From NCBI GenBank assembly GCA_965116735.1, contig OZ220712.1, positions 3,265,680 through 3,329,679 of the forward strand: a DNA stretch of 64,000 nucleotides. Direction: 5' to 3'. This document shows positions 3,505 to 55,889 of the stretch, piece by piece (positions within the stretch are counted from its first letter, which is position 1; every line of letters starts with the position of its first letter). This stretch comes from Thermodesulfobacteriota bacterium (lineage in GTDB: Bacteria > Desulfobacterota > Binatia > UBA9968 > JAJDTQ01). The translations under genes were made by a program, and so were the position numbers. Under the pieces are notes generated by a model. The model was not told where the DNA came from. It made no database searches and saw only the letters and a program-made list of their open reading frames with translations.

Positions 3505-3540
3505 ACGAAGCTACTCGTGCAGGTGAATACCGATTGAATA

Positions 3541-3873
3541 CTAGTCCTTGAGCGTCTCGGTGGCCTCGACGTCGATGGTGCTGAAGAGCTGGTAGATGGC
3601 GAGGACGATGGCCAGGCCGATGGCGGCCTCGGAAGCCGCCAGCATGATGATGAACACGGTGTAGATCTGCCCGTCCACCTGTCCGGTGCTGAAGTGCGAG
3701 AAGGCGACGTAGTTCAGTCCCGCCGAGTTGAGGATCAGCTCCACGCCGAGAAGAATGGCGATGGCGTTGCGCCGGGTGAGGACGATGTAGATGCCCAGCG
3801 CGAACAGGATGCCCGCCACCGCCAGGTAGTGTTCCAGTCCGACGTTCGTCAGGTTTGCAAGGTGTACAGCCAT
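3541..3873 (-). CDS. nuoK: NADH-quinone oxidoreductase subunit K
   Basis: ~110 aa three-TM protein MAVHLANLTNVGLEHYLAVAGILF...; track ORF begins at a TTG 9 nt upstream, ATG start chosen. Confidence 0.85.
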   Translation of the reverse strand: MAVHLANLTNVGLEHYLAVAGILFALGIYIVLTRRNAIAILLGVELILNSAGLNYVAFSHFSTGQVDGQIYTVFIIMLAASEAAIGLAIVLAIYQLFSTIDVEATETLKD

Positions 3874-3890
3874 CTTTCGCAATCGGGTGC

Positions 3891-3915
3891 GGGCGGGTTT
3901 GAAACCCGCCCCTAC
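3891..3915. repeat. REP-like palindrome gggcgggtttgaaacccgcccctac
   Basis: Exact 25-mer in the nuoK-nuoJ gap. Confidence 0.8.
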
Positions 3916-3916
3916 G

Positions 3917-4423
3917 TTATTCCTTGATTTCCTTGCGCGACAGCGTGATGGCGCCGATGAGGGCCACCAGCAGCACCACCGCGGCGATCTGGAACGGCAG
4001 CAGGTAATCGCCCAGGAAGAGGTTGCCGATGGACGCCGTGGTGGGCGCGAACGCCACTTCCTTCACCCTCGCCCAGTCGGTCTCGCCGATGGCGTAGACC
4101 AGGATGCCCAGGAACACCGCCGTCGCCACCAGCGCGGGAATGCGGCCCACCGTGCGGTTGGTGATGTCGATGTCGCTGATCCGGTGGGTCAGCATGACCG
4201 CGAACAGGATCAGCACCAGGATGCCGCCGACGTAGATCAGCACCTGCACCGCCGCCACGAAGTCGGCCCCGAGGAAGACGTAGAGCCCGGCCACGCCGCC
4301 GAAGGTGCCCAGCAGCGAGAACGCCGAATGCACGATGTTGCGCGAAAACGCCACGATGCAGGCCGACCCCACCACCACGAGGGAAACCAGATAGAAGATG
4401 AGAACGTCTATGGAAATCTCCAT
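3917..4423 (-). CDS. nuoJ: NADH-quinone oxidoreductase subunit J
   Basis: MEISIDVLIFYLVSL... resembles NuoJ N-terminus; track ORF starts at upstream GTG, internal ATG chosen. Confidence 0.85.
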   Translation of the reverse strand: MEISIDVLIFYLVSLVVVGSACIVAFSRNIVHSAFSLLGTFGGVAGLYVFLGADFVAAVQVLIYVGGILVLILFAVMLTHRISDIDITNRTVGRIPALVATAVFLGILVYAIGETDWARVKEVAFAPTTASIGNLFLGDYLLPFQIAAVVLLVALIGAITLSRKEIKE

Positions 4424-4483
4424 GATCAAAACCACCCTTTAGATGGGAGGACGAGCGGCCCGTATCACACGAATCGGGCCACG

Positions 4484-4644
4484 AGTGTGGTGTCTCGTTA
4501 GTGCGTCAATGAATCTGCTGGTCTTTTTCGCCGTCGGCTGCGTTGCTCTTCCTCGCGTGGTGCCCGCCACTGCTCGTCATCGCGCCTTGCCGACAACGAA
4601 AAATCCTGCGCATCTTCATCAACGCACTAACGAGACACCACACT
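4484..4644. mobile_element. MITE-like element (IS630-related terminal inverted repeats, conserved 70-nt core)
   Basis: Perfect 22-bp TIR agtgtggtgtctcgttagtgcg at both ends; core ggcaaggcgcgatgacgagcagtggcgggcaccacgcgaggaagagcaacgcagccgacggcgaaaaaga (reverse orientation) identical to the copies at 44.2 and 51.8 kb; lies in the nuoJ-nuoI gap. Confidence 0.6.
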
Positions 4645-4723
4645 AGAGAGTTGCGCCGCGGCGGGGGGCCAGGAGCCTGTCCGACGAGATAGTCTCGCGA
4701 ATCCTGACATGCCCTGCGGGCCG

Positions 4724-5263
4724 TCAGTTTTCCGGCTCGGCTATCTCGTCCATGTACGTCTTTCCGATATCCACCTTCTGAATCATCCGGGGTTCCGTCT
4801 CCCCGCCCTTCTTCGGCTTGTAGAGAGGCACCTTCTCGGTGATGAAGTGCCGCACAAGACCGGCGGGGTTGTTGCACGCGCCCTCGAACTCCTGCGTGTG
4901 ACGGATGGATCCCGTGGGGCAGGCCTCCATGCAGAGCCCGCAATACATGCACTTGCAGATGTCGATGTCGAACAGCGTGAAGTCGCGCTGCTTGGTCTCG
5001 GCGTTCATCTCGATGCCGATGGCGATGCAGTTGATGGGGCACACCCGCTCGCACGCCAGGCAGCCCGTGCAGATGTCCATGTCGACCTCTAGGATGCCGC
5101 GGTAGCGGAGCGGCAGGGTCTCCTGCACCTGCGTGGCGATGCGGTCGGGGTACTGGACGGTCGACGGCTTGCGGACGAAGTGGGAGAACGTGATGGTCAT
5201 CCCCTCGAAGATGCTCCGCACCGTGTCCCTGACGTTCTGACAGTATTCGATGATTCCGTTCAT
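4724..5263 (-). CDS. nuoI: NADH-quinone oxidoreductase subunit I (2x[4Fe-4S] ferredoxin)
   Basis: Two CxxCxxCxxxCP motifs (CTGCLACERVCP, CMYCGLCMEACP); 179 aa; in operon position. Confidence 0.9.
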   Translation of the reverse strand: MNGIIEYCQNVRDTVRSIFEGMTITFSHFVRKPSTVQYPDRIATQVQETLPLRYRGILEVDMDICTGCLACERVCPINCIAIGIEMNAETKQRDFTLFDIDICKCMYCGLCMEACPTGSIRHTQEFEGACNNPAGLVRHFITEKVPLYKPKKGGETEPRMIQKVDIGKTYMDEIAEPEN

Positions 5264-5297
5264 GGCGTTTCCCCGTGCCGCTTGTCGGTCGTTTCCC

Positions 5298-6503
5298 CTA
5301 CACGTACGGCTTGAGATAGAGGGTGGGGCGCGAGTGCATGATCTGGTAGACCACCCGCCAGATGAAATAAAGCACGACGAGGCACGACACCGCCAGCGTG
5401 GCCATGGTCAGGGCGAAGTTTCCTTCGGGCCAGATCACCAGCAGCACGATGGTGCCGAACAGGCAGATGAACGACATGGGCACCATGTACTTCCAGCACA
5501 TGGCCATGAGCTGGTCCACCCGCACGCGCGGCAGGGTGCCGCGCACCCACATGGCGACGAAGGCCCAGAAGTAGGCCTTGACGAAGAACACCGCGAACTC
5601 CAGCACGCCCTTGAGCAGCGGGTGCTCGGCCATGGTGACGCCGAAGATCGTCGCCGGTATCTGCCAGCCGCCGAGGAACAGCGTCGCCGCGATGGCGCCG
5701 ATGACGTACAGGTTGCCCCACTCCGCGAAGAAGAAGAACAGGAAGCGCATGCCGCTGTACTCGGTCACGTAGCCGGCCACCAGCTCGGACTCGGCCTCCG
5801 GAATGTCGAACGGCGTGCGGTTTCCCTCGGCCAGCGCCGCGGTGAAGAACAGGAAGAAGGCCACCAGCGTGAAGGGGTTGTAGAAGATGAACCAGTCCCA
5901 CGGCGCCCATCCCTGGGCCTTGATGATGCCCTGCATGCTGAGGGTCCCGGACAGGAAGATCACGGTCAGCACCGCCACCCCGGCGGGTATCTCGTAGCTG
6001 ACGATCTGGGCGGCCGAGCGCATGCCCCCCAGCAGCGACCACTTGTTGTTGGACGACCAGCCCGCCATCAGGATTCCCACCACCACCAGGGAGGTAATGG
6101 CCAGCAGGTAGAGGATGCCGATGTTCAAGTCGGCGGGTATCAGCCAGCTTCCGAAGGGAATGACGACGAAGGCGCCGAGGAACCCCGAGAAGACGATATA
6201 AGGCGCCAGGAGGAACAGCTTCCTGTCGGCCGACGCCGGGATGATGTCCTCTTTCTGGATGTTCTTGACCCCGTCCGCCAGCCACTGAAGAATTCCCTGC
6301 GGGCCTACCCGGTTGGGGCCCACCCGGGACTGCATGCGCGCCCACACGCGCCGCTCGAGCCAGCTCGTCACGCCTGCCAGCGGCGCCACGAAGAACGACA
6401 GCACGGCGAAGGCCACCGCCACCGCCGCCAGGGCATAGCCCAAGGCCGCCGGGACGGCACCCGGCAACAACGTCGCGATCAGGTCTTGTACGGTAAAGTC
6501 CAT
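5298..6503 (-). CDS. nuoH: NADH-quinone oxidoreductase subunit H
   Basis: 401-aa polytopic membrane protein, NuoH/ND1-like, in operon position. Confidence 0.9.
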   Translation of the reverse strand: MDFTVQDLIATLLPGAVPAALGYALAAVAVAFAVLSFFVAPLAGVTSWLERRVWARMQSRVGPNRVGPQGILQWLADGVKNIQKEDIIPASADRKLFLLAPYIVFSGFLGAFVVIPFGSWLIPADLNIGILYLLAITSLVVVGILMAGWSSNNKWSLLGGMRSAAQIVSYEIPAGVAVLTVIFLSGTLSMQGIIKAQGWAPWDWFIFYNPFTLVAFFLFFTAALAEGNRTPFDIPEAESELVAGYVTEYSGMRFLFFFFAEWGNLYVIGAIAATLFLGGWQIPATIFGVTMAEHPLLKGVLEFAVFFVKAYFWAFVAMWVRGTLPRVRVDQLMAMCWKYMVPMSFICLFGTIVLLVIWPEGNFALTMATLAVSCLVVLYFIWRVVYQIMHSRPTLYLKPYV

Positions 6504-6521: not shown

Positions 6522-7658
6522 CTATCGGTCGATCTCGGGGGCGTCCACGTCGAGGCTCGCGATCAGCGCGATGAGATCCGCGACCATGATGCCCGGGCTG
6601 ATCTTGTCGATGATGCTCATGGCGGTGAACGAGCCGGTGCGGATCCTCACCCGGTAGGGGTACTCGCTGCCGTCGCTGACCACGTAGTAACCCATGTCGC
6701 CGCGCGGCGCCTCGATGCGCACGTAGGTCTCGCCGGCGGGCGGCTTGAACTTGCGCGCCACCTTGGCGACGGCCGGGCCGTCGGGCATCTTGTCGAGGCA
6801 CTGGCGCAGGATCTTGCAGCTCTCCATCAGCTCGCGGATGCGCACGTAATAACGGTCGTAGGAGTCGCCGAGGGTCCCGCGCTCGCCGCGACCCACAGGC
6901 ACCTCGAAGTCGAGATCGGGATAGACCGAGTAGGGGATGTCCCGTCGGATGTCCCACTGGACGCCGGAGGCCCGCAGGTTGGGACCCACGAGGTTGTACT
7001 GGAGCGCGTCCTCCTTGGAGATCACCGCGACGTTGGCCAGCCGCTCGATGAAGATCTTGTTGTACGAAAGGAGCCGGTTGTACTCGTCGACGATGGGCTC
7101 GAAATGGTCCAGGAACGCGGTGATCCGCGCACAGGTTTCGGGCTTGATGTCGTAGCCGACGCCGCCGATCCGCAGGTAGTTGTAGGTGAGGCGGGCGCCG
7201 CAGATCTCCTCCATCAGGTCGTTGATGCTCTCCCGCTCCCGAAGCGCGTGCAGGAAGGGGGTGATGGCGCCGATGTCCTGCCCGAAGGTGCCCACCGCGA
7301 TCAGGTGGCTGGCGACGCGGTTCAACTCGCAGGCGATCACCCGGCAGTATTCGCCCCGCGGCGGCACCTCGACGTTGCCAAGCCGCTCCGCCGCCATGCA
7401 GAAGCCCTGGTTGGCGAACATGGCGGCGAGGTAGTCGGCGCGGTCGGTGTAGGGGACGTAGCCGTGCCACGTGCACTTCTCGCCGATCTTCTCGATGGAG
7501 CGGTGCAGGTAGCCGACGTCGGGGATGGCCTCGTTGATGACCTCGCCGTCGGTCTTGACCACGAACCGCAGCACCCCATGGGTGCTCGGATGCTGCGGCC
7601 CCACGTTCAGGGTCATGTCTTCGGTGTGCAGGCCGGTGCGTTCGGCAACCTCAGCCAT
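6522..7658 (-). CDS. nuoD: NADH-quinone oxidoreductase subunit D (49 kDa)
   Basis: [31 protein letters not shown]... is the canonical NuoD N-terminus; 378 aa. Confidence 0.9.
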
Positions 7659-7689
7659 GATGTCCTTCCTTCGTCAACGACCCGGACGC

Positions 7690-7714
7690 GGGCGGGTTTG
7701 AAACCCGCCCCTAC
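7690..7714. repeat. REP-like palindrome gggcgggtttgaaacccgcccctac
   Basis: Exact 25-mer in the nuoD-nuoC gap. Confidence 0.8.
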
Positions 7715-7745
7715 AATTCGACCGCGGCACTCTGCCGCGACCCGT

Positions 7746-8252
7746 CTAGCGCATGTTCTCCGGGACCAGCGGCTCGCGCTCGGTGCTGATGCCGTCGTAC
7801 TCTTCCTGCTCCACGAAGTCCTTGCGCAGGGGATAGCCCACCCAGTCCTCGGGCAGCAGGATGCGCCGCAGGTCCGAATGCCCTTCGAAGACGACCCCGA
7901 AGAGATCGAACACTTCGCGCTCGAACCAGTTGGCCACCTTCCAGACGTCCTCGACCGTGGCGATCCGCGAAGCGTCCCGGTCCACGTCGGCCTTGAACAC
8001 GATCTGTTGCGGGGGCTCGTAGGAGTACAGATGGTAGACCACCTGGATGACGTTCTCGACGGGAAGATCCACCGCGGTCAGGTCGGAAAGCACGCTGAAC
8101 TTGAGCGCTCCGTCGTCCCGCAACGCCAGGCACACTTCCTTGAGGTTGGCCGCGTTGACCTTGAAGAACGGGTCCAGACACTCTTCATCGAGGTCGGTGG
8201 CGGCGCCGGGGCAAAGCTCGTTCACGCGCTCGAATATCTCTTTTGCCGTCAT
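7746..8252 (-). CDS. nuoC: NADH-quinone oxidoreductase subunit C (30 kDa)
   Basis: 168 aa, NuoC-like (…FDLFGVVFEGHSDLRRILLPEDWVGYPLRKD); directly follows nuoA with only 44 bp between them, so no nuoB. Confidence 0.85.
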   Translation of the reverse strand: MTAKEIFERVNELCPGAATDLDEECLDPFFKVNAANLKEVCLALRDDGALKFSVLSDLTAVDLPVENVIQVVYHLYSYEPPQQIVFKADVDRDASRIATVEDVWKVANWFEREVFDLFGVVFEGHSDLRRILLPEDWVGYPLRKDFVEQEEYDGISTEREPLVPENMR

Positions 8253-8295
8253 GTCGTCGTTACCTGCCTGGTGGCCCGACCGTCGCAGCCGTCGC

Positions 8296-8673
8296 CTAGC
8301 TCTTCACCCACTCCAGGTCGCCCTTGCACCAGTCGTAGATGAGGCCAAGGAACACGATGAGGGTGAAGACGGCGATGGCGCCGAACGCGAACAGTCCGGC
8401 GTCGTTCTGAAGCCAGTCGCGGAACACCACCGCCACCGGGAAGATGAAGGCGATCTCCACCTCGAAGATGATGAAGATCAGGGCGATGAAGTAGAACCGG
8501 ACGTTGAAGTTGACCCACGCGCTCCCGGAGGCCGGCTCGCCGCACTCGTAGGTGGAGAGCTTGCGGAGCTGGGGGTTGGAAGGCCGCAGCAGGCGGCCGA
8601 TCAACAGGTTCACCCAGACGAAGGCCGCACCCAACAACGTGAATACCAGCACGCTGGCGAAGTCAAAAAGCAT
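8296..8673 (-). CDS. nuoA: NADH-quinone oxidoreductase subunit A
   Basis: 125-aa three-TM protein with the conserved YECGE motif; AT-rich promoter region upstream (8680-8810). Confidence 0.85.
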   Translation of the reverse strand: MLFDFASVLVFTLLGAAFVWVNLLIGRLLRPSNPQLRKLSTYECGEPASGSAWVNFNVRFYFIALIFIIFEVEIAFIFPVAVVFRDWLQNDAGLFAFGAIAVFTLIVFLGLIYDWCKGDLEWVKS

Positions 8674-8875
8674 GGTTCCTCGGGTAAGATAAAGAAATCA
8701 ATAACCTTTTGCAGTCGGTCCCTATATACACACAAAAGCCGTTGCCGGTCAACAAACCGGCCCGCGCTGCCCGCCCCGGCATCCTTACACTGCCCAACCA
8801 TTCCTGTTACCTTATCCCGTGCTTGGCGTCGACCGGCACGACACGGGAAAGATCAAACCGGGAGAGATCAAACGC

Positions 8876-9868
8876 ATGGCAAGAGTGAGCATCACCGTCG
8901 CCTGTTGGGACTATGACCGGACGCGCCCCTTGCAGGAGGGCCGCGTGCCGGTGGAGGGGGTCGACCTGACCTACCTGCCGTTCCGCGTGGAGGAAACCTT
9001 CTGGCGCATGCTGCGCTACCAGGACTTCGACGCCGCCGAGATGTCCATGGGCTCCTACATGATGTCGCGGGACAAGGGCACGCCGCGGTTCGTGGCGATC
9101 CCGGTATTTCCCTCCCGCGCGTTCCGGCACTCCGGCATCTACATCCATACCGGCTCGGGCATCAAGGAAGCCGCCGACCTCACCGGCAAGCGGGTGGGCG
9201 TCCCCGAGTACCAGATGACGGCGGCCATCTGGCAACGCGGCATCCTGCAGCACGAGTACGGCGTCGATCTCGAGAAGGTGAACTGGTTCACCGGCGGCGA
9301 AGAGACGCCCGGACGGGAGGAAAAGCTCCGTCCCGACCTGCCCGAGACCCTCTCCATCACTCCCATCGGCCCGGGCCAGACCCTCTCCTCCATGCTGGAG
9401 AACGGCGACATCGACGCCCTGATCTCGGCCCACATGCCGTCGCCGTTCGTGCGCCGCTCGCCCAAGGTTGGGCGGCTGTTCCCGGACTTCCGCTCGGTGG
9501 AGGAAGACTACTTCCGCAAGACGGGCATCTTCCCGATCATGCACACCGTCGTCTTCCGGGAAGACGTGTACGAGCGCCACCCATGGGTGGCACAGAACCT
9601 CTACAAGGCCTTCTGCGAGTCCAAGCGCCTCTGCGCCGAGGCCATGTACGAATATTCGGCGCTCAAGTACATGCTGGCCTGGTCCATCGAGCAGATGGAG
9701 AAGGAGAAAGAGGTCCTGGGACCCGATGCCTGGGCCTACGGACTGGAGCCCAACCGCCATGTCCTGGAGACGCTGGTGGGCTACGCCCACGAGCAGGGCC
9801 TCACCAAGCAGCGGCTCGAGGTGGATAGCCTGTTCGCGCCGAGCACGCTGAACGAGTTCAAGGTGTAG
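8876..9868 (+). CDS. NMT1/THI5-like protein (4,5-dihydroxyphthalate decarboxylase-like family)
   Basis: MARVSITVACWDYDRTRPLQEGRVPVEGVDL...GIFPIMHTVVFRE pattern typical of this family; start moved to internal ATG at 8876. Confidence 0.55.
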   Translation: MARVSITVACWDYDRTRPLQEGRVPVEGVDLTYLPFRVEETFWRMLRYQDFDAAEMSMGSYMMSRDKGTPRFVAIPVFPSRAFRHSGIYIHTGSGIKEAADLTGKRVGVPEYQMTAAIWQRGILQHEYGVDLEKVNWFTGGEETPGREEKLRPDLPETLSITPIGPGQTLSSMLENGDIDALISAHMPSPFVRRSPKVGRLFPDFRSVEEDYFRKTGIFPIMHTVVFREDVYERHPWVAQNLYKAFCESKRLCAEAMYEYSALKYMLAWSIEQMEKEKEVLGPDAWAYGLEPNRHVLETLVGYAHEQGLTKQRLEVDSLFAPSTLNEFKV

Positions 9869-9908
9869 GGGACCCCGGCTCCAAGGTTGTAGGGGCGGGA
9901 GGCAACGC

Positions 9909-10256
9909 TCACCTTTCGGTATGGAGGGCTACGCTAGATTTGTTGCCGCGCGTCTCTCTCTCGAATGGTGCAACCTCGATCTCGCCCGCCCGCCCGCGGG
10001 TCTTGGCGATGTCGTAACTGTTCTGCATACGCATGAGGGTGTCCATCGACACGCCGAATGCCTTCTCAATTCGCAACGCCATCTCCGGCGACAAGCGCGC
10101 TCGCTCGTTCAGGACGGCCGACAGCGCCGCCCGCGTGACGCCCAGCGCCTTCGCCGCCCGAGTCACCGTCAGATCAAGAGCCTCGATGATCTCGTGTTTC
10201 ACGAACTCGCCAGGATGGACGGGGCTCTTCATTCGGAAGCCGTGTACCGGTTTCAT
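9909..10256 (-). CDS. higA: HigA-family antitoxin (XRE-type HTH)
   Basis: HTH core LTVTRAAKALGVTRAALSAVLNERARLSPEMALRIEKAF; 10 bp downstream of higB with GAGAGG RBS. Confidence 0.7.
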   Translation of the reverse strand: MKPVHGFRMKSPVHPGEFVKHEIIEALDLTVTRAAKALGVTRAALSAVLNERARLSPEMALRIEKAFGVSMDTLMRMQNSYDIAKTRGRAGEIEVAPFERETRGNKSSVALHTER

Positions 10257-10265
10257 GTCTACCTC

Positions 10266-44131: not shown

Positions 44132-44171
44132 ACGTACCGTCTTGGCGCCTGCTCGCGGCGCTCTTCCGCTA

Positions 44172-44330
44172 GTGTCGTGTCCCGTAGTTTCCTGGCATAA
44201 GTTGCGCAGGATTTTTTGTCGTCGGCAAGGCGCGATGACGAGCAGTGGCGGGCACCACGCGAGGAAGAGCAACGCAGCCGACGGCGAAAAAGACAAGCAA
44301 ATTATGCCAGGAAATTACGGGACACGACAC
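44172..44330. mobile_element. MITE (non-autonomous IS630-family derivative)
   Basis: 159 bp with perfect ~29-bp TIRs gtgtcgtgtcccgtagtttcctggcataa; TA duplication on both sides; the first 13 nt of the TIR are identical to the right end of the IS630 copy at 49.99 kb; carries the conserved 70-nt core. Confidence 0.65.
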
Positions 44331-44866
44331 TAGTATGTCCGCTCGAAGCTCTTCCTGAGAGTCTGAAGCTGCGTGCGCACGCTGCCGTCGTAGACCTTGC
44401 CGCCGACCTCGACGATGATGCCGCCGACGATACCGGGGTCCACCTCCTCGGTGAGCATCGCGGTCTTGCCGGTCATTTCACCCACCACCGCAACAAGGCT
44501 GTTCCTCTGATCCTCCTCCAGGGCCTGTGACACCGTGACCTTGGCGTTCACCCGCCCCGCCGCGTCGTCCAGCAGCCGGTGGTAGTGATTCACGATGGAG
44601 GACAACCCGTCCATGCGGTCCCGAGCGACCAGCAGCGAGAGGAAGTTGGTGGTCAGGTCCGACAATCCCAGGTGGCCCGCCACCTCCACGACGATATCCT
44701 TGCGGCGGTCCTGGTCGAAGGCGGGGTTTCCCAGCACCTTCTTCAGGTCGGGATCCTCGTACGCCTCGAGGAAGGCGTCCACCTCGGCGCCGATGGCCTC
44801 CTCACGGCTGGCGGCGAGCTCGAACACGGCTCTTGCGTAACGGCGGCTCAGTTTTCCTTCGATCAT
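44330..44866 (-). CDS. atpH: F1Fo ATP synthase delta subunit
   Basis: 178 aa, OSCP/delta-like. Confidence 0.85.
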   Translation of the reverse strand: MIEGKLSRRYARAVFELAASREEAIGAEVDAFLEAYEDPDLKKVLGNPAFDQDRRKDIVVEVAGHLGLSDLTTNFLSLLVARDRMDGLSSIVNHYHRLLDDAAGRVNAKVTVSQALEEDQRNSLVAVVGEMTGKTAMLTEEVDPGIVGGIIVEVGGKVYDGSVRTQLQTLRKSFERTY

Positions 44867-45940: not shown

Positions 45941-46291
45941 GCTTCGCGTTCGTTGCTGAAGACACCGGACTCGGACGGCGAGCCCCGGTCAAGGAAGATA
46001 CGGAGTGGCGTGAACCTAGATGTCGTCAGTAGCCTCTATAAACCTCGTTTCCTTCCCCGCGCTTGCTCGGTGACGCCCGCCGTGTAGACGGAACGACGCT
46101 CCCGGAAAGGGAAAACCTCGATAGTCTGCCCGGTTGTTCCACGAAAACGCGGACTTATCGCACCGCACCGGATGAGTCTGCTTGCAGTCTGAGGAAAGGC
46201 AAACCTCTTTCAACTGCCGACCACGGACGGTCTATAGCACTCGCACCTTTACTTGTCAAAGAGAGCCAGTGTAAACCAGCGGTCTGCGTCG

Positions 46292-47383
46292 TTACGCAGC
46301 GAAATCGCGTAAATGACAAGCGGGACCAAACCTCTCGACGTTCCATCCTGAATCCGAATCAATCCGGCGTCGCAGCCGGACCGAACCAGTCAATATCGGT
46401 TGCTGTCGAAGTCGGACCTTGGATTCGCGTATTGTCCGATCGACCGTCCGATCTCTACGCTTCCCAGACTGCTTGGCAAGCCCGGCCTTTGATGTGGCGA
46501 AGGCATTTGGCGTTTGATTGAGAATACGGTCCACATCTCTCTTGGTCGGCAGGACCCTACCTCCTTTGCACCAAGGCGTCAGCACCGCGTACGGGTTAGG
46601 TTCCAACATAGTTCTCCAAACGCCAGCTTCATCGGCATTCTCTGACCCGTGGTGCGGCACCTTAAATACGGATGCTCTACCACTCGGTCGCTCGCGACTC
46701 TGCAGAATCTCGACCCAAGCACCCTTCTCCGAGTCTGAACCAAGAAGCAACTCCGTACCACCTACACTTATCCACAGCACGACAGCAACATCATTGGGGG
46801 ACACACTCGGAACCCGTGTCTTCGTGCTACCTGCGTTGGGGAACAAGGCACCAATTGATCTAAGAGAGTTACTGAATTCCGCGCTTCCAGGAGACAAGGA
46901 CCAAACCCGGCACCTTCCGCGGGAATAAATGCGCATGTTGGCCAGAGCGAACGTTGGTTGAGCGGCCCTGGATTGGAGTTGGGTGAGCACGGCATGAATC
47001 TCTCGAACACCGGAGCCGTCTATCGCGACGTCACGTCGCCCCCAGGCACCAACGGCGGTGAGAAATTCCTTGTCGCGTAATGCGGCAGCGCAACAGAAAA
47101 CGGCCTCTTTGCAAACCTCAACCACCCTTGACATCCCGCGTATGTGATCATCGTGCCAATGGGTAGCGACTACTAGGCCGACGGCCTGCGAGGGGTCTAC
47201 ACCGAGACTCCGCAAGTAACCTAACGCTCGTGGGTAGCCATCGCGGTCGATACAGGAGTCAACAATGACCCAGTTGCCATCGCCGATATGAAGAACCACG
47301 CTCTCCCCATACCCGGGGCCAACGAGTGTAACCTCTAGCTCGTCTCGGTCCGGCTGCGTACCGACGCTTGCAGACTCTGTCAC
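46292..47383 (-). CDS. metallo-beta-lactamase-fold protein (ComEC-like MBL: HxHxDH and PHHGS motifs)
   Basis: ATHWHDDHIRG and KVPHHGSENAD motifs; proposed GTG start forms a GTGA overlap with the upstream gene's stop. Confidence 0.65.
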   Translation of the reverse strand: MTESASVGTQPDRDELEVTLVGPGYGESVVLHIGDGNWVIVDSCIDRDGYPRALGYLRSLGVDPSQAVGLVVATHWHDDHIRGMSRVVEVCKEAVFCCAAALRDKEFLTAVGAWGRRDVAIDGSGVREIHAVLTQLQSRAAQPTFALANMRIYSRGRCRVWSLSPGSAEFSNSLRSIGALFPNAGSTKTRVPSVSPNDVAVVLWISVGGTELLLGSDSEKGAWVEILQSRERPSGRASVFKVPHHGSENADEAGVWRTMLEPNPYAVLTPWCKGGRVLPTKRDVDRILNQTPNAFATSKAGLAKQSGKRRDRTVDRTIRESKVRLRQQPILTGSVRLRRRIDSDSGWNVERFGPACHLRDFAA

Positions 47384-47979
47384 TCGTCGAAGACCGCCCT
47401 GGTCTTCCGCGCCCACTCCTCGGCCTCCTGAACGTCTTTCTTTGTGAAAGCGGGAAGGTCGCGGAATACGATACGAGAAACCCGTTCCTTCGTGCCCACA
47501 ACCGAACGGCTGTATCCGATGACCCAACGAAAGACGCTTCCAAGTTGCAACTTGGCCACATCGGTCTCCGATAGCTCTTCCAAGGGTATTACTGCTTCTT
47601 CCCCTGCATAGGCCGCCCCTGCCGTCACGTCTAGGAGATTAGCGGTGATGTCCTCGTCTCTAATCTCAGTGACATAGCCTTCCCACTCCTGGATCGCGTA
47701 GAGGGTCGGAGAAGGGTTCTGGGGTGGTCGTGGAGGTAAGAGTTCGACGACCTTGGCAAGTTGTGGGTCGCTCTGTTCACTACCGGTTAACGGAGACAAA
47801 TCTGCCGCTTCCATCTGGGGGTAGCGGGCCCTCGTTGTCGCAACGTCCCTCCCCTGGGCCAATACTGCGCCAACAGTCTCGTCCATGTTCTTGACGAGGT
47901 CTTCGATTGTCGCGTCGCGATCAAGACTACCGACATCGTCGACCGCCCTCGCCGTAGTCAGTTGAGCCGTCTGTGGCAC
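47380..47979 (-). CDS. hypothetical protein (acidic, 199 aa)
   Basis: Middle gene of a three-gene minus-strand cassette; no recognisable motif. Confidence 0.5.
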   Translation of the reverse strand: MPQTAQLTTARAVDDVGSLDRDATIEDLVKNMDETVGAVLAQGRDVATTRARYPQMEAADLSPLTGSEQSDPQLAKVVELLPPRPPQNPSPTLYAIQEWEGYVTEIRDEDITANLLDVTAGAAYAGEEAVIPLEELSETDVAKLQLGSVFRWVIGYSRSVVGTKERVSRIVFRDLPAFTKKDVQEAEEWARKTRAVFDE

Positions 47980-47995
47980 CTATCTATACCTCCCT

Positions 47996-48685
47996 CTAAT
48001 CTGCCAAAGCCATGACGTGATCAATCAGATCCTCACTTCGCTTCAACGAAGCTTCGAAGTTGTCCTCTAGTAAACCAATCAAATGCGCCGCAGAGTTCGG
48101 GCTGTCGTTGTCGCTGGCATAGTGATCATTGACAGCCACATAGACCCCTGTGCGCCCCTCGCCAATCCGCGTGGACGGCTCCACCTTGACATTAATGCTA
48201 CCACCCTTTGGCCTTCCTTGGGGATCGATTTGCGACATCGTGAGTGACGTCATGCCTCCTTGCATTCCGTCCAAGCCGAGAGCTTCCCTCCAATCACCCC
48301 AAGGTTCCACGGGAGCTAAGGTCCTACCTATCTTATCTCTAACGCTTAAACCCTGTACTTGGAAATGAACCTCTCGGTTGATCCCGAACCCCGTAAGGGG
48401 CGTGTTAGGTAGAATTTCGTTGAACACGCGCGAGCTTAGATCTCGCAGCCGAATGTAGGGTGCCTGTAAAGTCTCGCACTTGAACCGTTCTGTCGTCACG
48501 TCGACACGGAGCCAATCAACGGAGAATACGGTGAGCCCTTGGTGGGCTACCTGCAACTGTGCAACCACTTCCGCACCCTTCGGCAAGAGGTCGTGCAACG
48601 TAAACCAAGCCGGGGTGAATATCGCTGGGTTAAACTTACCCACCAGGATGATGTTCACACCGCTTATCTCTGGCGTTATGCGCAT
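47996..48685 (-). CDS. hypothetical protein (~229 aa)
   Basis: First gene of the cassette (MRITPEISGVNIILVGKFNPAIF...); no recognisable motif; lower GC than the core genes. Confidence 0.5.
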   Translation of the reverse strand: MRITPEISGVNIILVGKFNPAIFTPAWFTLHDLLPKGAEVVAQLQVAHQGLTVFSVDWLRVDVTTERFKCETLQAPYIRLRDLSSRVFNEILPNTPLTGFGINREVHFQVQGLSVRDKIGRTLAPVEPWGDWREALGLDGMQGGMTSLTMSQIDPQGRPKGGSINVKVEPSTRIGEGRTGVYVAVNDHYASDNDSPNSAAHLIGLLEDNFEASLKRSEDLIDHVMALAD

Positions 48686-48841
48686 ATGGCCCATCCAACT
48701 TGGTCGCAACCGCAGCTAACCAATCGTAACCGTTATCTGTGACTTCGCGAAACTGGTTCCATATCACACCCGTTACCGCAGCGTCGAGAACGCGCAAACA
48801 ACTTTTAAAAAGAAATCGATGGGCAAGGAGAGAACACCCTA

Positions 48842-49990
48842 GTGTACTGTCCCACAAATAACTAGTATAATAATGGGCAACCCCCCAAAAGGAGGATGCC
48901 CATGCCGCGTGGTCGCCCGGTTAAGCCTGTGGTTCTGGCGGAGGAAGAGAAAGCCCAACTTGTCAGTCTTGCCAACTCTCGCTCCCTGCCGCACGGGTTG
49001 GTGCGGCGGGCGCAAATCGTTCTTGCCTGTGCAGAAGGAGAGTCCAACAGCTCTATTGCCGGGCGCATGCGCGTGAACAAGGCAACGGTCGCCAACTGGC
49101 GCAAGCGCTATCTCATGGGCGGCATCGAGGGCCTGCACGATGAACTGGGTCGGGGGCGCCACAGGACCTATGAAGATGAACGGGTGGCCACAACCCTCAA
49201 CGCCGCACTGCAAAGCAAACCACGCGACGGTTCCAGCCATTGGAGCGTGCGTGCGCTGGGCGAGGAAACCGGCATTTCCAAGAGTACCGTGCAACGGTGG
49301 TTCAACCTGTTCAGCATCCAACCCCACCGCCAGCGTCACTTCAAACTCTCCAACGATCCCTTCTTCGTCGAGAAAGTGCGCGATATCGTGGGACTTTATC
49401 TCAACCCGCCCGACCATGCCGTGGTCCTGTGCGTCGATGAAAAAACCCAGGTCCAAGCCCTCAACCGCACTCAACCCATGCTGCCCATGGGATTGGGGTA
49501 CGTCGAAGGGGTCACCCATGATTACGTCCGCCACGGCACCACCACCCTGTTCGCCGCCCTTGACATTGCTACCGGCCGAGTCATCGCCCAGTGCAAAAAA
49601 CGCCATCGTCACCAGGAGTTCCTTACCTTCCTCAACCACATCGATGCCAACGTCCCCGAACCTTTCGACGTCCATCTCATCGCTGACAACTATGCTACCC
49701 ACAGACATCCAAAGGTCAGAGCCTGGCTCGCTAAACGCCCCCGCTACCACATCCACTTTACACCCACCTATGCCTCATGGCTCAATCAAGTCGAACGCTG
49801 GTTCGGCCTCATCACCCAGATGGCCATCCGCCGCGGCTCCTTCTCCAGCGTCTCCCAACTCGTCCAGAAAATCCGACTCTTCGTCCAAAACTACAACCGC
49901 AATGCCGCTCCCTTCATGTGGACCGCCACCGCTGACTCCATCCTTGCCAAGGTCCAACGTCTTTGCTCATATATTTGCGGGACACGACAC
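48842..49990 (+). mobile_element. IS630-family insertion sequence (intact, TA target-site duplication)
   Basis: Imperfect TIRs gtgtactgtcccacaaat / atttgcgggacacgacac; flanked by TA at 48840-41 and 49991-92; single DDE transposase ORF. Confidence 0.8.
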
Positions 49991-51718: not shown

Positions 51719-51762
51719 TGAGCCGGTTGTTATGCCACGCAAGCCCTCGGAGAATACGGCTA

Positions 51763-51930
51763 GTGTGGTGTCTGGTTAATTCGCAGCATAATATGCGGAA
51801 GATTTTTCGTCGTCGGCAAGGCGCGATGACGAGTGGGGGCGACCGTAGGTCGCCCCAGGGCGGGCACCACGCGAGGAAGAGCAACGCAGCCGACGGCGAA
51901 AAAGACCCATATATTATGTGATGATCTCAC
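51763..51930. mobile_element. MITE copy with truncated/degenerate right end
   Basis: Left TIR tagtgtggtgtctggttaattcgc plus the conserved core (with a 26-nt hairpin insertion); right arm diverges after cccatatattatg at the junction with the integrase island. Confidence 0.45.
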
Positions 51931-52197: not shown

Positions 52198-53373
52198 ATG
52201 CGCCAACCCGTCAAGCTTACCAAGCGCGCCGTCGATGCGCTCGCCGCGGAATCGGGCGACACCGTGGTCTGGGACCGGGACCTTCCGGGTTTCGGCATCA
52301 GGGTGTATGCCTCGGGCCGCAAGGTCTGGTGCGTGCAGACCCGCGGACCGGCCGGGGGGCCGAAGCGCTTCGCGCTGGGCCGATACGGCAATCTGACACC
52401 GGACGACGCCCGACGCAAGGCGGCGGTGGCCATCGACCGCATCAAGCAGGGGCTTGAGCCTGCCCCACCGCCCGTGGCGCCCGAGCCCACGGTGGCGGAT
52501 CTTGCCGAGCGCTACATGGAGGCCCATGTCCGGGTGAACTGCCGGCCCGCGACGGTGGAGACCTTCGGGCGCCTTCTGCGGCTGTACGTGGTGCCGGAGC
52601 TGGGCCACCTTGGGCTCTCGGAGGTGGACCGTCCCCAGGTCTCCGAGTTGCATCACAAGCTCCGGGAGAAGCCGTACCAGGCGAACGCGGCGGTGGGGGT
52701 GCTGGCGAACATGTTCCGGCTTGCGGAAGCGTGGGGGATGACGCCGCCGCGGCGCAATCCGTGCCGGTCGGTGCGGCGCTACAGGGAGGCGCGCCGCGAG
52801 CGGTTCCTCACGCCCGAAGAGTACCGCGAGCTGGGCCGGGTGCTCGACGAGGCGGAAGCCGACGGCACGGTGTTCCCGCCGGCGATCCCCGCGCTCCGTC
52901 TGCTGCTGCTCACGGGCTGCCGCCGGAACGAGGTCCTGACGCTCAGGTGGGACGACGTGGACCACGCGGCGGGGGAGCTTCGGCTGAGGGACGGCAAGAC
53001 GGGATGGCGCAGCGTGCCGCTCACGCCGGCGGTGGAGGCGGTGCTTGCGGGGATACCGCGGACGAAGGACGACCCGTGGGTGATCGCCGGACGGAAGCCC
53101 GGAACGCGCCTCACGAACCTGGATGCCATCTGGATGAGGCTCCGCAGGCGGGCGGGGCTCGACGACGTGCGTCTCCACGACTGCCGTCACTCGTACGCGT
53201 CGCGGGCGCTGGCTTTGGGCGAAGGGCTTTCGATGATAGGCGCGCTGCTGGGTCATTCGAAGGTGGGGACGACAGCGCGCTATGCGCACCTGGCGCGGGA
53301 CACGGAGAAGGCTTCGGCCGCCCGGGTCGGGGGCAGCATCGGGGCGGACATCCTGCCGCCGGGCGCGGTTTGA
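52198..53373 (+). CDS. tyrosine-type site-specific integrase (P4-like, DUF4102 N-domain)
   Basis: 391 aa; conserved R...HDCRHSYAS...LLGH...ARYAHL catalytic motifs. Confidence 0.85.
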   Translation: MRQPVKLTKRAVDALAAESGDTVVWDRDLPGFGIRVYASGRKVWCVQTRGPAGGPKRFALGRYGNLTPDDARRKAAVAIDRIKQGLEPAPPPVAPEPTVADLAERYMEAHVRVNCRPATVETFGRLLRLYVVPELGHLGLSEVDRPQVSELHHKLREKPYQANAAVGVLANMFRLAEAWGMTPPRRNPCRSVRRYREARRERFLTPEEYRELGRVLDEAEADGTVFPPAIPALRLLLLTGCRRNEVLTLRWDDVDHAAGELRLRDGKTGWRSVPLTPAVEAVLAGIPRTKDDPWVIAGRKPGTRLTNLDAIWMRLRRRAGLDDVRLHDCRHSYASRALALGEGLSMIGALLGHSKVGTTARYAHLARDTEKASAARVGGSIGADILPPGAV

Positions 53374-53394
53374 GGCGGAGGGAGGGAGCGGTCC

Positions 53395-54642
53395 ATGGCA
53401 AAGCTCACCACGGCGACGATTTCGAAGCGAACGGTGGAGGCGCTGACGGTGGAGAAGGACACGGTCTACTGGGACCCGGAGCTTTCGGGCTTCGGGGTTC
53501 GCGCCTATCCTTCGGGGAGCAAGTACTACGTGGTGCAGACCCGCGCCAACGGCAAGGCGGCGAAGCGGGTGACGGTGGGCCGGCACGGGATCGTGACGGC
53601 GGAGGAGGCGCGCAGGCGGGCGGCGCTGATCATCGCGCGCATCAAGGCGGGAGAGGAGCCGCTGGCGGAGCCGGCGGCGGTGGCCTGTGGTCCCACGGTG
53701 GGGGAGATTGCGCGGCGGTGGCTTGAGGAGCACGTGGCGGTGCGGTGCAAGCCCAGGACGGTGGAGATGTACACGCTGATCGTCCGCAAGCACCTGCTGC
53801 CCGCACTCGGCAGGGCGCCGGCACTGGCGGTGGATCACAGGCGGGTGACGGAGCTGCACCACTCGATGCGCGGGACGCCGTCCATGGCGAACCGGACGGT
53901 GGAGGCGCTGTCGCGCATCTGGAACTCTGCGGAGGACCGGGGGGAGTTGCCGGAGGCGAGCAACCCGTGCCGGGTGGTGATGAAGAACCGCGAGCGCGGG
54001 CGCGAGCGGTTCCTGAGCGAGGAGGAGTTCCGCCGGCTGGGGCGGGCGCTGGCGGAGGCGGAGACAGGGAGGGAAATGTCGGCGCACGCGGTGGCGGCGA
54101 TCCGGCTGCTGCTGCTCACGGGGCTGCGGCGGAACGAGGTGCTGGGGCTCCGCTGGCGGGACGTGGACCTCGATGCGCGCGAGATCAAGCTCGAAGACTC
54201 CAAGACCGGCGCGAGGGTGGCGCCGCTTTCGCCGGAAGCGGCTCAAGTGCTAGCCGGCATTCCGCGCGTGGAGCGGAACCCGCACGTGATTCTGGGGAGG
54301 AAGCCGGGCACGCGCCTGCGCAACCTGAACGACTCCTGGGACCGTATCCGCAAGCGCGCGGGGCTGGAGGACGTGCGGCTCCACGACTGCCGCCACTCGT
54401 TCGCGTCCAGGGCGCTGGCGCTCGGCGAAGGGCTGACCATGATCGGGAAGCTCCTGGGTCACACGAAGGTGGAGACCACCGCGCGGTACGCGCATCTGGC
54501 GCGGGAGTCGGTGCGCGAGTCCGCCATCCGCGTCTCCGACAGCATCGCAGCCGACATCCTGAAGGGATACCCTGGTTCGTGCGGCGGACGTTGGTGCAGT
54601 CGCTCGGGAGTTCTTTGTGAAGGTGCTGGAGCAGGCGCGTGA
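53395..54642 (+). CDS. tyrosine-type site-specific integrase (tandem paralog; C-terminal tail replaced by IS fragment sequence)
   Basis: Same motif set (HDCRHSFAS, LLGHTKVETTARYAHL); the last ~25 aa read into an IS5-family remnant. Confidence 0.8.
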   Translation: MAKLTTATISKRTVEALTVEKDTVYWDPELSGFGVRAYPSGSKYYVVQTRANGKAAKRVTVGRHGIVTAEEARRRAALIIARIKAGEEPLAEPAAVACGPTVGEIARRWLEEHVAVRCKPRTVEMYTLIVRKHLLPALGRAPALAVDHRRVTELHHSMRGTPSMANRTVEALSRIWNSAEDRGELPEASNPCRVVMKNRERGRERFLSEEEFRRLGRALAEAETGREMSAHAVAAIRLLLLTGLRRNEVLGLRWRDVDLDAREIKLEDSKTGARVAPLSPEAAQVLAGIPRVERNPHVILGRKPGTRLRNLNDSWDRIRKRAGLEDVRLHDCRHSFASRALALGEGLTMIGKLLGHTKVETTARYAHLARESVRESAIRVSDSIAADILKGYPGSCGGRWCSRSGVLCEGAGAGA

Positions 54643-55318
54643 GGCGCGGCTTTAGTCGGATGAGCACTTCAGCGTGGACGGGACGTTGCTGGAGGCGTGG
54701 GCGTCGATGAAGTCGTTTCGTCCCAAGGGAGGAAACGGACCGGGCGGTGGTGGACGCAATGCCGAGGCAGACTTCCGGGGTGAGAAGCGCAGCAATGCAA
54801 CCCATGAGTCGAGCACCGACCCGCAGGCCCGGCAGTACCGCAAGAGCAAGGGGCAGGAAGCGAAGTTGTGCTACCTGGGGCATGCTCTGATGGACAACCG
54901 CCATGGACTGATTGTGGACACGCGCACCACCCAAGCCAGCGGCCGGGCTGAGCGGGAGTCGGCACTGGCCATGCTGGAGGCGCGACCCGGCAAGGGTCGG
55001 CTCACCGTGGGTGCGGACAAGGGGTACGATACCAAAGACTTTATCGAGGGGTTGCGCTGGGTGAACGTGAGTCCTCACGTGGCGCAGAACGACAGCAACC
55101 GGCGTTCGGCCATTGACCGCCGCACCACCTGTCACCCGGGCTACGCTCACAGCCAGCGGGTGCGCAAGCGGATCGAGGAGGCCTTCGGCTGGGCCAAGAC
55201 CGTCGGCGGGTTGCGCAAACTCAGGCATCGGGGGTTACCCAAAGTGGACTTCCAGTTCACCCTGACCTTCGCTGCCTACAACCTGGTGCGGCTGCGCACC
55301 CTGGGAGTCCGAACGTGA
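54575..55318 (+). pseudogene. IS5/IS1182-family transposase fragment (C-terminal part, frame-disrupted)
   Basis: ...FFVKVLEQAREARL*SDEHFSVDGTLLEAWASMKSF... with a stop/frame break; downstream 214-aa ORF is the DDE C-terminal region; element 3' end near 55440-55475. Confidence 0.6.
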
Positions 55319-55889
55319 GCATGCTTGCGGTGGCCGCGTACGTCCGCGCCACGGTCTCGGCCATCGAAAGGACCGCGAACGAGCTCCGTCCCAACCCCTC
55401 CCGTGTTCTGTTCTCTCCCCGTCGCCCACCGCGCCACTTACCAATCCTCAAATCCGTGGGTTTTCCCACGGCCTGCTAAAGCAGAATCCTTCCAATCAAA
55501 ACCAGGGCAAGGATAACGCCAAGCAGCCTCGGAAGGAAGAATACAGGAGGATGCCCCAAACACAATCCATTGATTTTCGCGGCGGAGAGGGGCGAATCTC
55601 CGCCCCGTCTACTCCTTCACCATTTTCAGGTTCCCATCTTTCAGGTTCTGACTCATAAGCTTTAGAGTTGCGATGAAGGCAGGATCGTTCCTATCGCCCG
55701 GAACAACGAGCGTTGTGTTGAGTGAGAAGTCCGGCAATAGGAATACGGCTGTTACTCGATTCCGACAGTGGGGATGGCACCCGGCTCACCGCGATCATGT
55801 TCGGAGCAGAATGACGTCCCCGACGGACGAGTCCACGACGCGGAAGTAAAAGGTGCTTGGCGAACAACTGGAAGAAGCAATCGTACCGC

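Follow-up and report, generated by a model that had tools for sequence, protein, structure and literature searches.

Gene content of the locus

The window analysed here is a stretch of 64,000 nucleotides from contig OZ220712.1 of a Thermodesulfobacteriota bacterium (Binatia). It carries a minus-strand cassette of three genes that we term A, B and C (Table 1). The boundaries of the cassette were set by comparing strains with identical AtpA protein, and it is flanked by the atp operon on one side and an IS630 element on the other. A preliminary description of this DNA had listed three minus-strand genes with a 16-bp gap and a GTGA overlap, a lowered GC content and these same two borders, and all of these features could be located. 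A gap of 16 bp that contains a Shine-Dalgarno site separates the stop codon of A from the start codon of B, and the GC content of the cassette is 55.5%, compared with 64% for the remainder of the window. The start of A is fixed because its homologues keep the N-terminus MRIxPEI in the alignment. For C, the start giving 363 aa is favoured over a database call of 374 aa because the homologues keep an N-terminal 'MT'. Homologues are numerous for all three proteins (616 for A, 339 for B and 2462 for C) and hence A, B and C are real genes and no chance open reading frames. A profile of A retrieves 2325 cluster representatives at 50% identity. Scans of the region from 45.8 to 49.1 kb with Rfam and for promoters and terminators yielded nothing meaningful.

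Table 1. Features of the cassette and the adjoining insertion sequence (positions in the window).
Feature	Position	Strand	Remarks	Basis
Whole cassette	46266..48839	-	upstream region of ~155 bp, genes A, B and C, tail of 26 bp	strain comparison
Gene A	47996..48685	-	229 aa; ATG start at 48685; pI 5.4, acidic	
Gene B	47380..47979	-	199 aa; GTG start at 47979; pI 4.5, charge -14	
Gene C	46292..47383	-	363 aa; GTG start at 47383; soluble ComEC-like MBL-fold hydrolase, predicted DNase	
Shine-Dalgarno-like AGGGAGG	47989..47995	-	9 nt upstream of the B start codon (GTG)	read from sequence
GTGA overlap	47380..47383	-	start of C with stop of B	read from sequence
IS630-family element	48842..49990	+	outside the cassette; later insertion	terminal inverted repeats, TA duplication, strain comparison
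IS630 terminal inverted repeats	48842-48860 and 49972-49990			

Conservation of the operon

We compared the cassette with 80 related loci, every one from a MAG, which represent at least ten named groups at phylum or class level. The gene order A-B-C is kept in every one of these loci, with C present in 79. The 4-nt overlap between B and C is kept in 64 of the 80, which supports the translational coupling proposed earlier from the window, and the gap between A and B is mostly 2-5 nt. One protein, P0363, is a natural fusion of A and B, the single case of its kind. All divergent members of the A family that were sampled belong to a triplet. Cultured carriers are Adhaeribacter swui KCTC 52873 and Pantoea agglomerans AR24; the Adhaeribacter plasmid NZ_CP055155 has the triplet at positions 3121-5471 with 27-29% identity, the Pantoea plasmid pAR24_C a remote version of it at 7612-10263, and both plasmid copies adjoin recombinases. 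A search around the related loci for a universally conserved fourth gene found none. In tblastn searches against phage genomes A had no match and C a single weak one. The earlier proposal implied that the genes would occur together elsewhere and would show no homology placing them in a metabolic pathway; A, B and C co-occur everywhere examined, and no such homology emerged. Thus, the cassette is a real, widespread, conserved and so far unnamed three-gene operon with conserved coupling.

The ComEC-like protein C

Protein C matches Pfam Lactamase_B (PF00753) with 28.1 bits (E 2.3e-6), above the gathering cut-off of 22.7, and this score together with its metal-ligand motif makes it a member of the metallo-beta-lactamase (MBL) fold superfamily. 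The motifs ATHWHDDHIRG and KVPHHGS are present and their residues invariant in the family. Across 23 sequences, one of which has only 29% identity, D42, H75xH77xD79H80, D217 and H244H245 do not vary. No histidine is invariant between residues 80 and 244, and the classical motif-3 histidine could therefore not be assigned. The preliminary description had called C a ComEC-type MBL protein without the ComEC membrane domains. The first part is supported by the best match among PDB sequences, the MBL domain of ComEC (9ic4_A, 2.7e-4), and by matches to defence MBL nucleases; the second part is borne out as well, since no Competence domain was found, nor did C match DUF4131 (N-terminal OB) in Pfam. 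The ComEC/Rec2 models score far below their cut-offs (TIGR00361 19.6 bits against 190, PRK11539 18.5 against 969), with the match confined to residues ~194-256. The stretch from motif 2 to motif 4 is ~40 residues longer in C than in the ComEC domain, and C ends in a basic tail of ~50-70 aa (pI 11.7), whose basic character is shared by 23 of 23 homologues.

Among the defence models of PADLOC, C matches LmuA (2.1e-8, 31.7 bits, partial) and RTasMBL (3.4e-7) best, followed by Avs1a (0.035), while A and B match no model. Against the curated Avs1a model NF041809 it scores 15.2 bits with a cut-off of 420, and against NF058524, the model of the 6A-MBL anti-phage system, 19 bits with a cut-off of 220, the latter over 22 residues around HxHxDH only. 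From these profile scores C appears to be related to defence MBL nucleases, yet it stays below the curated cut-offs for membership. Dionysus, Ophion and Ambrosia, taken from a preprint mentioning 6A-MBL, are unrelated to the cassette.

Proteins A and B

Neither A nor B had shown a recognisable motif by eye, and scans with Pfam, NCBIfam, PADLOC and PHROG also came back empty for both, in the case of A including 48 diverse relatives. Pfam, NCBIfam, PHROGs and PADLOC scans of the Adhaeribacter and Pantoea versions of A and B gave nothing either. AlphaFold predicts A (pLDDT 87.5) as a two-lobed alpha/beta protein in which a beta-alpha-beta(3-4)-alpha unit occurs twice, a TBP-like topology. A profile of A against PDB sequences returned noise only. 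AdoMetDC, RepDE, Bet v 1 and ACT were rejected as homologues of A, as Foldseek against the PDB gave low-TM matches only. The best match among viral models is A0A515MGR4 (E 1.4e-10, TM 0.55-0.61); these viral matches also include a putative TATA-box-binding protein. The alignment of A contains no conserved cysteine. As modelled, the fold of A offers no functional lead.

Protein B is predicted to consist of two parts. Residues 1-76 are disordered and variable (AlphaFold pLDDT <50), while residues ~90-199 fold into a conserved barrel of five strands, OB-like in topology and followed by a C-terminal helix (pLDDT about 90), the order of elements being b1-b2-b3-helix-b4-b5-helix. A profile of B had no match at all among PDB sequences, and the fold matches are weak (Stn1, the LysRS anticodon OB domain and RPA; E 0.015-0.15, TM ~0.2-0.3). 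All 77 homologues of B are acidic, with a mean charge of -7 for the barrel domain over these sequences, and this acidity argues against nucleic-acid binding by B.

Chromosomal site and mobility

The cassette is exchanged horizontally and its presence varies between strains. In L087, L088 and L089, which have an identical AtpA, parB is followed by the atp promoter with 117-125 bp between them and without a cassette, and the sister strain L086 carries the cassette but no IS630. The IS630 is therefore incidental to the cassette, and an IS630 composite or cargo element carrying it was rejected on the same grounds and because the insertion sequence is a single copy with its own terminal inverted repeats and a TA duplication. 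This duplication lies inside the CTAG at the stop codon of parB. The cassette GC is lower than that of the flanks in 72 of 76 loci, and decayed or interrupted copies exist among the related loci. For the 250 bp upstream of the window cassette there is no matching locus elsewhere, and what matches downstream is atp leader sequence of the host.

The window proteins ParA, ParB and AtpA are 87-94% identical to those of two Binatia MAGs. A diverged copy of the cassette lies at the same parB/atp site in related Binatia MAGs, while closer strains are without it. Window A is 70% identical to a Terriglobia copy and 69% to the Binatia-MAG copy, whose AtpA is 94% identical. Judged from the diverged Binatia copy at this site, the present strain has not acquired the cassette recently. 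The horizontal acquisition suggested by the preliminary description thus holds in that the cassette is mobile, low in GC and patchy, but the acquisition is not recent and the IS630 has nothing to do with it. To judge from taxon and bin names (for example Poribacteria and Entotheonella), the MAGs may come from sponges.

Neighbouring defence genes

Hma comprises the SNF2/PLD helicase HmaA, the DUF1156 methylase HmaB and the DUF499 ATPase HmaC, and is also called a type-1 DUF499 BREX-related system (PMC8565338, PMC11232893, PMC12839542). Published work describes the hma operon as a hotspot at which other defence systems insert (PMC11232893). Of the 80 loci, 21-25 have the cassette inside such an operon, with HmaC-DUF7680 on one side and HmaB-HmaA on the other, giving the order HmaC-DUF7680-A-B-C-HmaB-HmaA, and DUF7680 or HmaB remnants flank some otherwise solitary copies. 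In other loci the cassette is often next to restriction-modification genes; immediate neighbours include a type III MTase and REase, a type I HsdR and SoFic, and in Latescibacterota the cassette is directly upstream of a gene for a 1034-aa N6_N4 / type III MTase. In more than half of the loci the neighbours are ordinary housekeeping genes. In the window itself, tblastn with HmaA, HmaB, HmaC and DUF7680 found nothing better than E 0.14.

Proposed function of the cassette

On balance, we consider the cassette to be most likely an autonomous, horizontally exchanged operon that acts as an anti-phage or anti-mobile-element module of the toxin-held-in-check type. C would be a metal-dependent ComEC-type MBL-fold DNase and the output of the system, with a strongly basic tail that resembles a DNA-binding element. 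B, acidic and with a disordered N-terminus, would be made in a fixed ratio with C via the stop/start overlap and would bind and mask it. The TBP-like, two-lobed A might be the third subunit, a sensor or scaffold. An infection cue would then free or activate C, and DNA would be degraded. That C acts as a nuclease, that B inhibits it, that A is a sensor and that the cassette has an immune role are all proposed here from the combined analysis, and the immune or toxin function is suggested through guilt by association. The preliminary description had spoken of a nuclease-based module; this reading is supported, and its defence or toxin role is inferred from context.

The case for defence is made up of the conserved unit and its coupling, the intact catalytic motifs, the charge complementarity, the embedding among defence genes and the variation between strains. 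Counted against it are the lack of a PADLOC model or defence family for A and B, the weak fold matches behind the OB assignment of B, the fold of A with no functional lead, and the housekeeping neighbours. The shared chromosomal site in the Binatia relatives would also fit a long-resident, non-immune function. More tentatively, A, B and C could be an unnamed but widespread anti-phage system in which a ComEC-type DNase is held by stoichiometric binding of two acidic proteins and no protease is involved. This version casts A as a TBP-like sensor and B as an OB-like, DNA-mimicking inhibitor; horizontal transfer would have carried the system through symbiont-type lineages of uncultured bacteria and also into Hma operons.

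Many abortive-infection systems are toxin-antitoxin-like, and the readings as toxin-antitoxin and as defence are compatible. A tripartite toxin-antitoxin system proper, with C as toxin, B as labile antitoxin and A as regulator or chaperone, would stabilise islands and plasmids by post-segregational killing. The acidic and partly disordered B upstream of the basic C with a 4-nt overlap is indeed an antitoxin-like layout, and the triplets on plasmids beside recombinases, the patchy distribution and the decayed copies would all suit such a role. However, the components are far larger than those of typical type II systems, neither A nor B has a detectable DNA-binding autoregulator domain, and the repeated embedding in Hma and the adjacency to RM genes fit defence at least as well, so that we regard this explanation as unlikely.

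It is rather improbable that the cassette is a nuclease sub-module of Hma (DUF499 BREX-related) or of type III RM with no function of its own, which would make the window copy an orphan remnant. The position directly upstream of a methyltransferase gene in the Hma and Latescibacterota loci and the DUF7680 or HmaB remnants beside some solitary copies speak for it. However, the triplet is intact without Hma genes in about 55 of the 80 loci, in the window and on both plasmids. In addition, HmaA of these loci has a weak PLD-like match of its own, and a recent survey of DUF499 systems mentions no MBL components.

A housekeeping or DNA-processing module (uptake, repair or recombination), in which a ComEC-like nuclease and an OB-like partner echo the domains of ComEC, would agree with the nearest relative of C being the ComEC nuclease domain, with the topology of B and with a position beside parAB and atp that is stable across the Binatia relatives. 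Yet we hold it to be very unlikely: presence varies among strains with identical AtpA, only 162 loci occur among about 185,000 species genomes, and the similarity across phyla does not track species relatedness. Competence and membrane domains are also missing, and B is acidic and without a PDB sequence match. A self-mobilising element, with A as Rep-like initiator, B as ssDNA binder and C as nuclease, would account for the many unrelated sites without an integrase and for the weak fold match of A to the rolling-circle initiator RepDE, but is hardly credible, as that match is of poor quality, with a TM of about 0.3 and an rmsd above 10 A, the wider A family has no invariant tyrosine, and conserved cassette ends, inverted repeats and target duplications were sought and none found.

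Comparison with known systems

C shares with the DNA-uptake channel ComEC/Rec2 the HxHxDH and PHHGS signature, and by sequence its best match among solved structures is 9ic4. Unlike ComEC/Rec2, however, it comes without the competence transmembrane domain and DUF4131, has the extra residues and the basic tail described above, and is encoded in a context unrelated to competence. With Hma there is an overlap in location, as the cassette is found inside Hma operons like other defence systems (PMC11232893), but none of the three cassette proteins is a homologue of HmaA, HmaB or HmaC and most copies are solitary. The resemblance to type II or tripartite toxin-antitoxin systems lies in an acidic, partly disordered upstream protein whose gene overlaps by 4 nt with that of a downstream basic enzyme, and in a mobile, patchy distribution. 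The differences are the far larger proteins and the three conserved parts; a known toxin or antitoxin family or an HTH/RHH domain was not detected in the cassette proteins.

The closest parallels are the defence systems with ComEC-like MBL nucleases, namely HamM of Hachiman, Avs1a of AVAST, the MBL-type LmuA of Lamassu, the DRT MBL and CanC of canu (canABC), a three-gene caspase-nuclease system. These nucleases are experimentally shown DNases (PMC12799240, PMC12642450). Those of Hachiman, AVAST, Lamassu, DRT and canu have recently been shown to be death effectors, and all of them are unlocked by a protease. Such pro-nucleases are marked by two disordered insertions that block the active site and have conserved cleavage residues. 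The cassette resembles these protease-gated pro-nucleases in having a soluble ComEC-related MBL effector encoded by a separate gene in a small operon, and as in canABC the nuclease gene is the last of three. In contrast to them, it has no trypsin, caspase or subtilisin domain: no protease partner for C was found in A or B or conserved in the flanks, and the partners are two acidic proteins. What sets the cassette apart is this protease-free pairing of a ComEC-like nuclease with two families without annotation, of which the A family alone numbers >2300 clusters at 50% identity. If the cassette is an immune system, it would bring a new control mechanism to the class of MBL-nuclease effectors, would give two large families of uncharacterised proteins a function and would help to explain why the cassette is exchanged among many uncultured phyla. 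The cultured carriers Adhaeribacter swui and Pantoea agglomerans make the hypothesis directly testable.

Organisation and conservation of the cassette

The three-gene cassette is most economically read as an autonomous nuclease-based conflict module. All three minus-strand open reading frames of the preliminary description are present in the window; B starts 16 bp past the stop codon of A and 9 nt past an AGGGAGG, and the start codon of C indeed lies within the GTGA that holds the stop codon of B. For C we prefer the 363-aa start over the 374-aa database call, since its homologues share the 'MT' N-terminus. The low GC content that had been remarked on holds as well (55.5% in the cassette versus 64% in the remainder of the window), and the GC content of the cassette lies below that of its flanks in 72 of 76 loci. 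The layout resembles that of a toxin-antitoxin pair, and a purely addictive role of this kind is the main rival to the conflict module.

Coordinates of the cassette and of neighbouring features in the window
Feature	Position	Strand	Details
Gene A	48685..47996	minus	229 aa; ATG start giving MRIxPEI, fixed by alignment with 21 homologues
Gene B	47979..47380	minus	199 aa; GTG start
Gene C	47383..46292	minus	363 aa; GTG start
Cassette bounds	46266-48839		deduced from the three site states
IS630-family element	48842-49990		bounds deduced from the three site states; 19-nt terminal inverted repeats (GTGTCGTGTCCCGCAAATA / GTGTACTGTCCCACAAATA)
MITE-like element	44169-44333		165 bp; between atpH and atpA; 37-nt inverted ends, 95% complementary
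Second MITE-like copy, degenerate	51759-51918		upstream of parA; 80-92% identity
170-bp segment	46017-46186		in the leader of the atp operon; a promoter-like site, TTGACA-17-TATAGA, lies upstream of it
Two tandem tyrosine integrases and a DDE_Tnp_1 transposase	52199-55319		just beyond parA; integrases of 391 and 415 aa (Arm-DNA-bind_3 plus Phage_integrase)

A search of 5.8 billion proteins recovered 616 relatives of A, 339 of B and 2462 of C, and the recurrence of the same contig sizes in all three match lists suggests that the genes share contigs. Scanning one genome per species gave 162 loci, of which the best 80, all from MAGs, were retained for comparison. Labels among the loci include Acidobacteriota/Terriglobia, Binatia, Latescibacterota, Gemmatimonadota, Rhodothermales, Spirochaetia, Poribacteria, Entotheonella, Thermodesulfobacteriota, Alphaproteobacteria and Gammaproteobacteria. 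By tblastn A-B-C keep the same order and strand in 80/80 loci, so the triplet is conserved as a unit. The 4-nt B/C overlap is found in 64/80 loci, and A and B are mostly 2-5 nt apart. When all flanking ORFs were clustered, no further gene proved to be universally conserved. C is absent from one of these best 80 loci and truncated, frameshifted or interrupted by insertions in about seven further ones. Insertions of 0.9-1.5 kb split C in four loci (L010, L064, L066, L076), and in four others (L031, L034, L059, L082) C is truncated, frameshifted or missing with A and B intact. The damage to C with retention of A and B suggests that the nuclease is selected against in some hosts. In each of two Latescibacterota genomes there are two diverged copies of the cassette, L028/L047 (OZ220721.1) and L015/L053 (OZ244937.1); in the latter genome L015 is Hma-associated and L053 lies beside a Fic protein and a large DNA methylase.

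The unit extends to remote relatives. A profile search of 1.84 billion cluster representatives found 2325 A-family members, and each divergent member whose contig was retrieved is followed by a gene of roughly 200 aa and, where the contig is long enough, by an MBL gene of roughly 370 aa. In the cultured Bacteroidota species Adhaeribacter swui the triplet is plasmid-borne, at 28%, 27% and 29% identity. A conjugative plasmid of Pantoea agglomerans carries a remote version, in which gene 1 aligns with the A profile (hhalign 97.5%, E 5.6e-12), gene 2 aligns with the C-terminal region of B (71%, E 3.6e-5) and gene 3 shares 29% identity with C. This Pantoea triplet (L093; pAR24_C, 7612-10263 of NZ_CP134760.1; plasmid type MOBF) has a tyrosine-recombinase gene on either side and adjoins the plasmid parAB, echoing the parAB-adjacent position in the window. 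In the 438-aa metagenomic protein P0363 a complete A is joined to a complete B domain via a disordered linker, through either a genuine fusion or the loss of a stop codon; a real fusion would argue that A and B act together.

The encoded proteins

C lies above the Pfam Lactamase_B threshold and contains the ATHWHDDHIRG and KVPHHGS motifs. Its assignment to the ComEC-type MBL proteins is upheld, as the protein of solved structure closest to it in sequence is the MBL nuclease domain of ComEC. In PADLOC, C matches the MBL effectors of Lamassu and DRT best, and it falls far below the curated cut-offs for ComEC, Avs1a and 6A-MBL. D42, HxHxDH, D217 and H244H245 are invariant, and the last roughly 70 residues are strongly basic in 23/23 sequences (pI 9.7-11.9).

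Neither A nor any of 48 relatives, down to 31% identity, matched an entry in Pfam, NCBIfam, PHROGs or PADLOC. AlphaFold models A with confidence (pLDDT 87.5, pTM 0.85) and predicts beta-alpha-beta(3-4)-alpha, twice. Foldseek gave only low-TM matches in the PDB (AdoMetDC, RepDE, Bet v 1) and a good match among viral models (A0A515MGR4, E 1.4e-10, TM 0.55-0.61, 16% identity), with a putative TATA-box-binding protein among the weaker viral ones. We describe A as a two-lobed protein with a predicted TBP-like fold. Four residues, D82, N103, N186 and H188, hardly vary throughout the wide A family. A0A515MGR4 is an unnamed viral protein of 202 aa with the same fold (BFVD model); a viral mimic of this kind might serve as a decoy or counteract defence.

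The N-terminal half of B is variable and disordered (pLDDT <50 at residues 1-76). The conserved C-terminal domain, with the motifs QEWEGYV and FRWVIGY, has the order b1-b2-b3-helix-b4-b5-helix, an OB-like topology, and matches only OB domains, weakly (Stn1, LysRS anticodon domain, RPA; E 0.015-0.15). B is acidic in 77/77 homologues (mean charge -12), as is the barrel (mean -7), which makes nucleic-acid binding doubtful; protein binding or DNA mimicry is, we infer, more plausible.

Genomic neighbourhood

Hma genes enclose the cassette in 21-25 of the 80 loci, arranged as HmaC(DUF499)-DUF7680-A-B-C-HmaB(DUF1156 methylase)-HmaA(SNF2/PLD helicase), with PADLOC E-values of 6.5e-99, 8e-77 and 3.9e-59 for HmaC, HmaB and HmaA. 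Payne et al. put Hma forward as a defence system (PMC8565338), phage protection by HmaA has been demonstrated, and further defence systems, namely Septu, Ppl and PARIS, are found inserted in hma operons (PMC11232893). A 2026 survey of DUF499 systems makes no mention of MBL components. Loci without Hma have mixed immediate neighbours, among them transposases, type III methylases (4 proteins), restriction enzymes, type I HsdR and SoFic (3); by a rough count, a known defence gene adjoins the cassette in about 40% of loci. A cassette that depends on Hma or RM partners is less likely than an autonomous module, and the window contains no Hma genes. Some neighbours are housekeeping genes; a housekeeping DNA-processing role is also less likely.

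A DUF7680 protein of about 160 aa lies directly downstream of HmaC in most loci with HmaC (L005 9313-9825 and 24 other loci). The three-gene definition of Hma in the literature does not include it, and it may be a fourth component so far overlooked. In L005 (1-20690, Terriglobia MAG OY762429.1) a dense defence island surrounds the Hma and A-B-C locus, with a caspase (Peptidase_C14) fused to a DEAD-box helicase that resembles Hachiman HamB, a VWA protein that weakly matches a sigma-54-type ATPase and an AAA_13 protein with a match to the PADLOC candidate PDC-S06 (E 4.8e-259).

History of the site

Contigs with an identical AtpA protein display three site states: parB, IS630, A-B-C, atp in the window strain; parB, A-B-C, atp without IS630 in L086; and parB, 117-125 bp, atp, with the cassette absent, in L087, L088 and L089. 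The L086 cassette shares 93% DNA identity with that of the window, as do the flanks, and its A has one frameshift (7x long-read contig). The parB stop codon is formed by a CTAG whose TA was the target of IS630, and the duplicated TA both restores this stop and provides that of the transposase. In two Binatia MAGs (L006, L007) the cassette occupies this very site. Their flank proteins are 89-91% (ParA), 87% (ParB) and 94% (AtpA) identical to those of the window, versus 69% for A, 57-59% for B and 70% for C. The window strain is thus Binatia-like and the site long occupied, and the empty strains are more simply explained as losses. The cassette of L006 and L007 is no closer to that of the window than copies from other phyla (e.g. 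Terriglobia A, 70%); the cassette either evolves much faster than the flanks or was swapped by recombination. Self-mobilisation of the cassette is a less likely explanation.

The MITE-like ends begin CTAG-TGTCGTGTCCCG, as the IS630 ends do. The 170-bp leader segment is limited to cassette-bearing strains (window, L086, partly L007), is absent at empty sites and has no Rfam match. L086 and L087 have gidB directly before parA in place of the integrases and transposase, and thus the origin-proximal region of the window strain gained several mobile elements.

Proposed function and comparison with known systems

In the proposed conflict module, acidic B and/or A would bind and mask the basic nuclease C, translational coupling would enforce the ratio of the subunits, and an infection cue would release C. 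The effector class and the general logic are already known. Neither the families of the two partners nor an architecture without a protease is represented in Pfam, NCBIfam (June 2026) or PADLOC v2, and neither was found in the literature searched. The cassette is a well-supported candidate, not a demonstrated system.

The ComEC-like MBL proteins of Hachiman, AVAST, Lamassu, DRT and canu are DNases that insertions keep inactive and a partner protease unlocks (PMC12799240, PMC12642450). The cassette shares this kind of effector with all of them, and as in canABC the effector is encoded by the last of three operon genes. However, unlike these protease-unlocked systems it is without a protease, and hence a different control of the same effector is proposed.
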